From Escherichia coli (GTDB lineage: Bacteria > Pseudomonadota > Gammaproteobacteria > Enterobacterales > Enterobacteriaceae), in NCBI RefSeq assembly GCF_044324875.1, contig NZ_CP172192.1: a stretch of DNA of 1,983 nt; one strand, 5' to 3'. The stretch's first letter is position 1. Each line of letters opens with the position of its first letter. The notes beneath the pieces were generated by a model. That model ran no database searches. It was given only the letters and a program-made list of their open reading frames with translations, and was not told where the DNA came from. Of the stretch, positions 1 through 1,983 are shown in pieces. Both the position numbers and the translations under genes were made by a program.

Positions 1-33
1 TGCGCGGTCCGACATTCCCACATCCTGTCCCGA
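1..33 (-). repeat. Inverted-repeat arm, proximal 33 bp (reverse complement of 289..321), truncated by the window start
   Basis: Exact 33/33 reverse-complement match to 289..321. Together with 1933..1983 it reconstitutes the full 84-bp arm if the window ends are joined. Confidence 0.95.
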
Positions 34-288
34 AAATTCCCGCCGTTTCTCGGTTTTTTGAGCGTCGCAGACCGCACGACAAACGAAACGAAGTGTAGTT
101 TGTATGAGTGCGCACTTCGTGAGATTCCCCGACTGCCAGTTTGTCGATCGCGCGGAACAGCTGTGGCACGAAAACGGCAGAATGATTTGCTGTCCGGTTG
201 CCAGAACTGCGCGCTTACGTGGAGGGCGGCGCGGCGCAAAAAACTGCCGACATTGCGCCAGTGTTCCGGTGACACAAACCCGCAGAAA

Positions 289-372
289 TCGGGACAGGAT
301 GTGGGAATGTCGGACCGCGCACGCTCGCTCAGACATTCCCCACCTGGTCAGGGCTTCGCCCCGACACCCCGC
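289..372 (+). repeat. 84-bp arm of a perfect inverted repeat (internal copy)
   Basis: Compared by eye base by base: reverse complement of 322..372 equals 1933..1983 and reverse complement of 289..321 equals 1..33, with no mismatches. Identity stops at 373 versus 1932 and at 288 versus 34. Confidence 0.95.
301..343. other. Nested stem-loop inside the repeat arm
   Basis: GTGGGAATGTC (301..311) pairs with GACATTCCCCAC (332..343), one extra C as a bulge, around a 20-nt GC-rich loop. The same structure exists in the other arm across the window junction (1964..1973 with 11..19). Confidence 0.6.
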
Positions 373-513
373 CAACGCCTCACGGCACGCGAAAAAATTC
401 CGCGTACCGCTCACCGTTCTTGAACTCGTCAAACAGAAAATCGCGGGGCCCCGCGCCTCCGGCGTGGGTTCCGATTTTGTGATTGACGACGGCACGGGGA
501 AAACGCTGGGTAT

Positions 514-568
514 GGTGGTTGGTGTCACGGAGTGAGGCCAACCACCTGCAAGACGGTTTTTTGTTGTT
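514..568 (+). other. Stem-loop followed by a T-rich tract
   Basis: GGTGGTTGG (514..522) pairs perfectly with CCAACCACC (538..546) around a 15-nt loop. TTTTTTGTTGTT (557..568) follows after a 10-nt gap. Confidence 0.3.
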
Positions 569-634: not shown

Positions 635-675
635 TTACTGAAAATCCAGCTCAAAATTCAAGCAAATCTCGCGCG

Positions 676-711
676 CGATCCTTGTATTTATACTTAAGGG
701 ATAACTCTAGG
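676..711 (+). promoter_or_regulatory. AT-rich island with a second nick-site-like motif; alternative dso or rep promoter region
   Basis: CTTGTATTTATACTTAAGGGATAACTCTAGG (681..711) is the only AT-rich stretch in an otherwise GC-rich window. CTTGTAT resembles CTTGATA, and TAAGGGATAACT resembles the TAAGGGTAACT that I recall downstream of the pC194 nick; that recollection is unverified. Confidence 0.2.
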
Positions 712-907: not shown

Positions 908-943
908 GTCAGATGAGCCATCGCCCACAATCGGGTGGTGCGC

Positions 944-1933
944 ATGAAAAACCCTAAACTCCAGTACCTCACTGATTATTCCCCCTCTGACGCGCCCTGG
1001 GACGCACACAGAAGCGTTTCTGACGACGTGGGAGGGATTTACCTGCTTGCGGCCGAATATGAGCGCTACGGGGCTCGTATGGCCTCCTGTGGCGGTTTAC
1101 TGCGTTTCGGGTGGTCTACCCTCAAGGAAACCGGAGAAACGCGTCTGAGGCTGCGTGAGGCGCATTTCTGCCGTGTCCGGCACTGTCCTGTCTGCCAGTG
1201 GAGGCGCTCCCTGATGTGGCAAGCCCGTTTCTACCAGTCCCTGCCGCGTATCGTGGCGGATTACCCTGATGCCCGCTGGATGTTCCTGACCCTGACCGTG
1301 CGCAACTGTGCGATTGGGGAACTGGGCGAGATGCTGAACCGGATGAATGCAGCTTTTCAGCGTATGAAGGTTCGCAAGGAGTTCCTGCCTGTTCAGGGCT
1401 GGATCCGCACAACGGAAGTTACCCGCGGCAGCGACGGCAGCGCGCATCCCCACTTCCACACCCTGATGATGGTGCCGCCCTCAATGCTATCTGGTGACGG
1501 GTACGTAAAACATGCTCGCTGGGTTGAACTCTGGCGGGAGTGCCTGCGGGTCAGTTACAACCCGAATGTTGATGTCCGGGCAGTAAAACCCCGTAAGCCA
1601 AAGGATGGCGAGTCCTTAGCCTGCGCGACCGCTGAACTGGTGCGCGGCGCAGTGGCCGAAACCCTGAAATATTCCACGAAGCCGGCTGACATGGTGGCCG
1701 ATCCTGAATGGTTCCTCGAACTGACCCGCCAGACGCACAAGCGCCGCTTTGTGGCGACCGGCGGCGCACTCAAAGACGTGCTGAAACTCGATCAGGAAAC
1801 CGACGCCGACATGGTGATCGGGGATGATATTTCCGAGGGCGACGATGACGGTTCACGCATCGCGTTCGAGTGGAAAACCGAGGTCAGAAAGTACCGTCGC
1901 TCACCGACGAAAGATAAAACTGAATCAGGCTAG
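944..1933 (+). CDS. rep: Rolling-circle replication initiator protein, HUH endonuclease of the pC194/pUB110 (Rep_1) class
   Basis: 332-codon ORF 935..1933 in the supplied track. Translation carries motif I FLTLT (nt 1283..1297), motif II HPHFH (nt 1445..1459, the HUH metal-binding motif) and motif III ETLKYSTK with Glu four residues before Tyr (Tyr codon 1670..1672), the arrangement known for pC194 RepA. Start is ambiguous: GTG at 935 or 938, or ATG at 944 preceded by GGTGG (934..938) at Shine-Dalgarno spacing; I chose 944. Stop TAG 1931..1933. Confidence 0.9.
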   Translation: MKNPKLQYLTDYSPSDAPWDAHRSVSDDVGGIYLLAAEYERYGARMASCGGLLRFGWSTLKETGETRLRLREAHFCRVRHCPVCQWRRSLMWQARFYQSLPRIVADYPDARWMFLTLTVRNCAIGELGEMLNRMNAAFQRMKVRKEFLPVQGWIRTTEVTRGSDGSAHPHFHTLMMVPPSMLSGDGYVKHARWVELWRECLRVSYNPNVDVRAVKPRKPKDGESLACATAELVRGAVAETLKYSTKPADMVADPEWFLELTRQTHKRRFVATGGALKDVLKLDQETDADMVIGDDISEGDDDGSRIAFEWKTEVRKYRRSPTKDKTESG

Positions 1934-1983
1934 CGGGGTGTCGGGGCGAAGCCCTGACCAGGTGGGGAATGTCTGAGCGAGCG
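1933..1983 (-). repeat. Inverted-repeat arm, distal 51 bp (reverse complement of 322..372), truncated by the window end
   Basis: Exact 51/51 reverse-complement match to 322..372. Begins at the last base of the rep stop codon. Confidence 0.95.

Follow-up and report, generated by a model that had tools for sequence, protein, structure and literature searches.

The catalytic logic of replication initiation by pC194 was established in the 1990s. In the RepA protein of this plasmid, Tyr214 is the nucleophile, termination by hydrolysis uses Glu210 as its general base, and Glu142 is a metal ligand; the catalytic residues of RepU of pUB110 are E163, E237 and Y241, and for both plasmids nicking, the covalent 5'-phosphotyrosyl adduct and the single-stranded plasmid intermediate are documented (PMC5703833). 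Both plasmids have CTTGATA as their nick sequence, placed ahead of rep in the rep-sense strand. Site-specific nicking, a covalent adduct and a single-stranded intermediate have reportedly been found for pKYM as well. This plasmid, which represents the Gram-negative side of the family in experimental work, has a 173-bp origin and depends on HU and UvrD (PMC4439123).

The stretch of DNA considered here (hereafter, the window; 1,983 bp) is a whole circular plasmid, 100% identical from end to end to pB of Salmonella Enteritidis (NC_005002.1). An E. coli plasmid, NZ_AP027664.1, is likewise 100% identical to the window over 1,983 bp, and 108 nucleotide records cover at least 80% of it. In the record of pB, the replicon type is given as ColpVC (a PlasmidFinder/MOB-suite label) and the mobility is typed as mobilizable. 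The plasmid is already published; a Salmonella publication by the group of its depositors is cited in PMC5841774. The only credible and conserved gene of pB, rep, takes up half of the plasmid, and its product is an exact database entry, RefSeq WP_011117490.1 ("protein rep", 329 aa); exactly this protein is carried by 506 contigs, and its 90%-identity cluster has 3,246 members. The rep reading frame, the plasmid and the Rep_1 family are all in the databases already, and nothing in them is new as a discovery. A pB-like fragment also occurs in a 150-kb IncF plasmid (NZ_OK236218.1, positions 4001-4701), where it lies between copies of IS26 and ISKpn26, matches window positions 62-202 and 343-693 at about 90% identity and lacks rep; it is what remains of a small plasmid after its capture by a large one.

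The gene that carries our argument is the following:

Positions 944 to 1933, plus strand: rep, read from ATG 944 as a 329-aa protein and assigned as a Rep_1-family HUH rolling-circle initiator on the basis of the open reading frame list, Pfam and the identical RefSeq CDS.

The initial annotation counted residues from GTG 935. The corresponding reading frame, 935 to 1933 on the plus strand, is as it was described (332 aa in the mechanical list, three codons longer than the CDS from ATG 944), but ATG 944 is likely to be the true start: it is the CDS start in the RefSeq records of the identical plasmid and is preceded, at a distance of 5 nt, by the Shine-Dalgarno-like GGGTGG (933-938), and no purine-rich sequence was found upstream of GTG 935. 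With the ATG 944 start, residue numbers drop by 3 relative to the GTG numbering, so that FLTLT occupies residues 114-118 and HPHFH residues 168-172, and the two key residues of motif 3 become E239 and Y243; the numbers used below are counted from GTG 935 unless stated otherwise. A consensus promoter scan of the window returned no sigma-70-like site, and terminator-like sites occur in it at chance level. A 78-aa reading frame at 299-535 on the plus strand (RefSeq "hypothetical protein" WP_000263637.1) was considered as a second gene; it begins inside arm 2 of the transfer origins described below and crosses the hairpin region, and it is probably not a gene because its frame is broken in plasmids pVCM01 and pRGI01198 and it is missing from the Col(BS512) plasmids.

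When the rep product is scanned against Pfam, Rep_1 (PF01446) is matched over almost its entire length (model positions 2-252 of 253, query residues 71-320) with E = 1.1e-84 and 284.3 bits, far beyond chance, so that the profile check suggested together with the initial annotation came out in favor of the family. A search of 1.84 billion cluster representatives yielded 3,780 relatives of Rep at 50%-identity clustering. A single PHROGs family, of unknown function, was matched, and in NCBIfam no model reached its cut-off with Rep as query. The sequence search of PDB gave only chance-level matches (STING, TEAD; E > 0.5), with no Rep_1 structure among them. The predicted fold of Rep is that of an HUH nuclease, with a central antiparallel sheet, the HUH motif on a strand and the catalytic tyrosine on a nearby helix.

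The residues that would perform catalysis were located in a conservation alignment of 146 sequences (143 near full-length relatives plus the prototypes, pC194 RepA and pUB110 RepU) and are arranged along the gene as follows:

Positions 1088 to 1195, plus strand: four-cysteine cluster C52...C79-x4-C84-x2-C87, lying ahead of the nuclease core and putatively binding zinc.
Positions 1283 to 1297, plus strand: motif 1, FLTLT, aa 117-121, with F117 to T121 conserved among the 146 homologues.
Positions 1415 to 1417, plus strand: E161, the equivalent of pC194 Glu142 and proposed metal ligand (role from PMC5703833), in 145 of the 146 homologues.
Positions 1445 to 1459, plus strand: motif 2, HPHFH, aa 171-175, with the HUH pair H173 (146/146) and H175 (144/146).
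Positions 1655 to 1681, plus strand: motif 3, AETLKYSTK, aa 241-249, with E242 and Y246, aligned with pC194 and pUB110.
Positions 1658 to 1660, plus strand: codon of E242, the proposed general base for termination, in 137 of the 146 homologues.
Positions 1670 to 1672, plus strand: codon of Y246, the nucleophile by alignment, in all 146 homologues.

A script finds the three motifs, E242 and Y246 at exactly the positions that had been annotated. MAFFT and BLASTP place Y246, E242 and E161 on the known catalytic residues of both prototypes, namely, Y214, E210 and E142 of pC194 RepA (from NC_002013.1) and Y241, E237 and E163 of pUB110 RepU (from NC_001384.1), and H173 and H175 on the HUH histidines of pC194 (NPHFH) and pUB110 (NQHMH), so that the alignment check suggested with the initial annotation bears out the family assignment as well. 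Motif 3 contains one tyrosine only, and its E-x3-Y spacing is identical to that of Glu210 and Tyr214 in pC194 RepA, which upholds the single-tyrosine architecture. The description of the motifs needs amendment in two respects. HPHFH was rightly positioned as motif 2, but the HUH motif proper is H173-F-H175, the position of H171 being occupied by asparagine in pC194 and pUB110. The catalytic signature that was called complete is correct in the motifs listed but leaves out E161 and the four cysteines, which are invariant in a four-way alignment and kept in 143-144 of the 146 homologues; this cluster is probably a zinc-binding element that the IS91 and Helitron enzymes also have. In 4 of the 146 Rep_1 representatives, E242 is replaced by tyrosine, yielding a natural Y-x3-Y as in phiX174 gpA and IS91. 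The same Glu-to-Tyr change has reportedly been engineered in pC194 RepA.

The proteins compared differ in their distance from Rep. The Reps of pVCM01 and other ColpVC plasmids have the same sequence as the reading frame analyzed here, the choice of the start codon (GTG 935 or ATG 944) being the sole difference. The Col(BS512)-type Rep (WP_001287824.1), the Gram-negative comparator that stands in here for pKYM RepK, is 69% identical over the full length; we take it to belong to a putative pKYM-like group of Gram-negative rolling-circle plasmids. Col(BS512) constitutes a replicon type of its own; its plasmids have an additional small reading frame and, in contrast to pB, no I-complex oriT. RepU of pUB110, a plasmid of a Gram-positive host, shows 30% identity over 315 residues (BLASTP, E = 2e-49), the C-terminal region included, and all motifs, the cysteine cluster and the catalytic residues align with those of pB Rep, with NQHMH in place of HPHFH. 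Identity to pC194 RepA is 26% (BLASTP, E = 3e-22); the two proteins have in common the E-x3-Y spacing and the FLTLT, (N/H)PHFH and KY..K motifs, whereas RepA, with 229 aa, lacks the C-terminal extension of about 75 residues found in pB Rep and RepU.

Judged by its sequence, then, the product of rep is an ordinary, well-conserved single-tyrosine HUH endonuclease of the Rep_1 (pC194/pUB110) family, and in the alignments none of the catalytic residues defined in pC194 RepA is missing from it. We consider it very probable (roughly 0.93) that the reading frame codes for the protein that initiates replication of pB, a circular ColpVC plasmid of 1,983 bp, and that it does so as a single-tyrosine Rep_1 HUH endonuclease, and we met no evidence contradicting this explanation. 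The rolling-circle mechanism, which was initially regarded as fixed by the motifs, is strongly argued for by this homology, which falls short of a demonstration.

The part of pB outside rep bears directly on the first alternative, namely, that Rep serves also, or instead, as a conjugative mobilisation relaxase nicking for transfer. This part contains the following features:

Positions 1933 to 1983, plus strand: first part of oriT-like arm 1, containing the palindrome GTCGGGGCGAAGCCCTGAC and continuing at 1-33 across the circular junction.
Positions 1 to 33, plus strand: remainder of oriT-like arm 1; it includes CACATCCTGTCCCG (19-32), where oriTs of the IncI/IncP type would be expected to be nicked.
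Positions 34 to 288, no strand assigned: the 255-bp segment between the oriT copies, which two sister plasmids carry reversed.
Positions 289 to 372, minus strand: oriT-like arm 2, which repeats arm 1 exactly in inverted orientation.

The two arms form a perfect inverted repeat of 84 nt, positions 1933-1983 plus 1-33 being the exact reverse complement of 289-372. In I-complex conjugative plasmids such as pO113, the DNA that directly precedes nikA/mobA shows about 95% identity to the arms. The arm sequence matches more than 1,600 conjugative plasmids, and a related oriT subtype lies upstream of nikA in an IncI-gamma/K1 plasmid. By these matches, pB carries two inverted I-complex (IncI/K-type) origins of transfer. 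By analogy with the R64 and RP4 oriTs, the nick presumably falls within ATCCTG/T of arm 1. The 84-bp repeat was also considered as a possible ssi element or single-strand promoter of the F type, which was rejected because the matching sequence in large plasmids lies directly upstream of nikA.

In support of a relaxase function of Rep, it can be mentioned that MOB-suite types the plasmid as mobilizable even though a relaxase gene is absent, that ColpVC plasmids, which are present at about 80-110 copies per cell, have been seen to transfer (PMC6118388), and that in the case of pC194 and pUB110 the Rep_1 proteins are able to support transfer mediated by ICEBs1 (PMC5714925). However, the two oriT copies in a plasmid that has no relaxase or nikA gene of its own already explain the mobilizable typing: mobilisation would proceed in trans, with NikA and NikB of a helper plasmid and without Rep. 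Moreover, no link was found between Rep_1 proteins and the I-complex oriT sequence. We therefore regard a relaxase role of Rep as very unlikely.

Still less can be said for the possibility that Rep is not a plasmid initiator but an HUH transposase resembling those of IS91, ISCR or Helitrons, or what is left of such an enzyme. The resemblance is real to the extent that IS91 TnpA, the Helitron Rep domain and phiX174 gpA have in common with pB Rep the HUH fold, a cysteine-rich N-terminal element and the order of the motifs, and the only other Pfam matches, both marginal, include the IS91 transposase zinc-binding domain (Zn_Tnp_IS91, E = 0.0079) next to a Rep ORF2/G2P model (E = 0.04). However, all three of these enzymes possess two tyrosines in the arrangement Y-x3-Y, whereas pB Rep, like pC194, has glutamate at the first position. 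The sequence of Rep scores far under the family thresholds of the two-tyrosine HUH families; in particular, the IS91 transposase model of NCBIfam (NF033538) gives 12.6 bits, its curated cut-off being 125, compared with the 284 bits for Rep_1. In addition, rep is the sole conserved gene on an autonomous circular plasmid of 2 kb that recurs in hundreds of isolates. The transposase reading, highly improbable on these grounds, is effectively refuted already. Finally, theta or ColE1-like replication with the Rep-like reading frame as an accessory, as hinted at by the "Col" in the label ColpVC and by the grouping of the plasmid with Col plasmids in the literature (PMC6118388), can be given hardly any credence, for neither RNAI/RNAII nor any other Rfam family, and hence no known antisense or ColE1-type RNA, was matched on either strand of the window even at E <= 1, and apart from rep, which is strongly conserved and makes up half of the plasmid, there is no other conserved reading frame.

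The region between the oriT arm and rep offers one candidate for a double-strand origin and one for a single-strand origin:

Positions 373 to 565, plus strand: candidate single-strand origin, with one hairpin at 426-489, another at 511-546 and a T-run after them, directly upstream of the nick region; function putative.
Positions 667 to 705, plus strand: candidate nick region, and as such a candidate double-strand origin, with the sequence TCTCGCGCGCGATCCTTGTATTTATACTTAAGGGATAAC in the rep-sense strand, lying about 240 nt before rep; function putative.

The latter is a non-coding block of 39 nt that is nearly invariant between the ColpVC and Col(BS512) plasmids, despite diverged flanks and a Rep identity of 69%, and it lies in pB at the place equivalent to that of the nick sequence in pC194 and pUB110. 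It is the best candidate, and a likely one, for the double-strand origin, that is, the nick and binding site of Rep. The block lacks the CTTGATA of pC194 and pUB110, and it resembles the nick region of pC194 weakly and without significance (31 of 500 shuffles score as well). Placing the nick by alignment with pC194 and pUB110 was accordingly rejected as not significant and ambiguous in register; the nick could lie at 684/685 or 689/690.

The region 373-565 folds strongly as plus-strand DNA (-52.1 kcal/mol, z = -4.3) and, like the candidate nick region, is conserved with the Col(BS512) plasmids, where both hairpins are kept. The stem at 511-546 shows a compensatory change between the two plasmid groups (GGTGGTTGG/CCAACCACC versus GGTGGATGG/CCATCCACC), and a hairpin tip in the region is variable yet still pairing. 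Owing to the strong fold, the retention of the hairpins and the compensatory change in the stem, 373-565 is a plausible single-strand origin. To our knowledge, it is not among the named Gram-positive sso classes.

By homology with pC194, pUB110 and pKYM, the replication cycle of pB can be envisaged as follows. Rep would bind the conserved region at 667-705, which precedes the rep gene by about 240 nt, with a divalent metal held by H173, H175 and E161. Y246 (Y243 when counted from ATG 944) would then attack a phosphodiester of the plus strand and become joined to the 5' end, leaving a free 3'-OH that would prime leading-strand synthesis, with a host polymerase and a UvrD-type helicase displacing the strand. 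After one round, a water molecule activated by E242 would cut the regenerated site, so that the plus strand would be released as a single-stranded circle; this E242-mediated cleavage would also prevent re-initiation. The structured region at 373-565 would thereupon prime the synthesis of the complementary strand.

The segment enclosed by the two oriT arms, 34-288, is flipped in pVCM01 (NC_019127.1, 99.4% identical to pB) and in p11-0230.2 (NZ_CP039590.1), the sister plasmids being otherwise 98-99% identical, and the pB orientation is common to about ten other records with two arms. The occurrence of opposite orientations in near-identical plasmids indicates that inversion isomers exist; the inversion may be due to RecA, to a NikB-type relaxase or to ambiguity of assembly. 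The arms of the two sisters are located as follows:

NC_019127.1 (pVCM01), positions 1073 to 1156 and 1412 to 1495: twin oriT arms.
NZ_CP039590.1 (p11-0230.2), positions 987 to 1070 and 1325 to 1408: twin oriT arms.

In each plasmid with twin arms, both arms are identical to each other even where they differ from those of pB: the single substitution of pVCM01 and the two substitutions of p11-0230.2 are present in both arms. This pattern points to concerted evolution by gene conversion; alternatively, it may reflect the collapse of repeats during assembly.

Other relatives (NZ_CP030116.1, HG796434.1, NZ_CP065565.1 and NZ_CP016511.1, the last at 1074-1159 and 1575-1605) differ in the arrangement of oriT. 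Some have a pair of inverted I-complex oriTs that belong to different subtypes: an IncI-type-like one adjoins rep, and the other is pO113-like; such mixing may widen the range of helper plasmids. The common 2.1-kb class of ColpVC plasmids has one full oriT and, inverted, only a remnant of the palindrome, the presumed NikA site.

The twin inverted oriTs, together with the 255-bp segment in its two orientations, may conceivably form a functional module rather than a chance duplication, but we hold this to be improbable. If it were true, either strand of the plasmid could be mobilised by the NikA/NikB relaxosome of a helper, relaxase- or RecA-mediated recombination could flip the segment and homogenise the arms, and in the single-stranded intermediate made by Rep, an 84-bp duplex could rebuild a double-stranded oriT or aid lagging-strand priming. 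Such folding of oriT in single-stranded DNA would couple rolling-circle replication to mobilisation.

The ColpVC replicon is widespread: several hundred papers on genomic surveillance report it, often lumping it with the ColE1 plasmids. The label is misleading, inasmuch as the replicon is, by homology, that of a Rep_1 rolling-circle plasmid with rep as its only replication gene, and lacks a ColE1-type RNA. Plasmid pB appears as a hitchhiker that has no relaxase but carries I-complex oriT sequences, and both this and the Rep_1 nature of its initiator bear on the spread of cryptic high-copy plasmids in Salmonella and E. coli.
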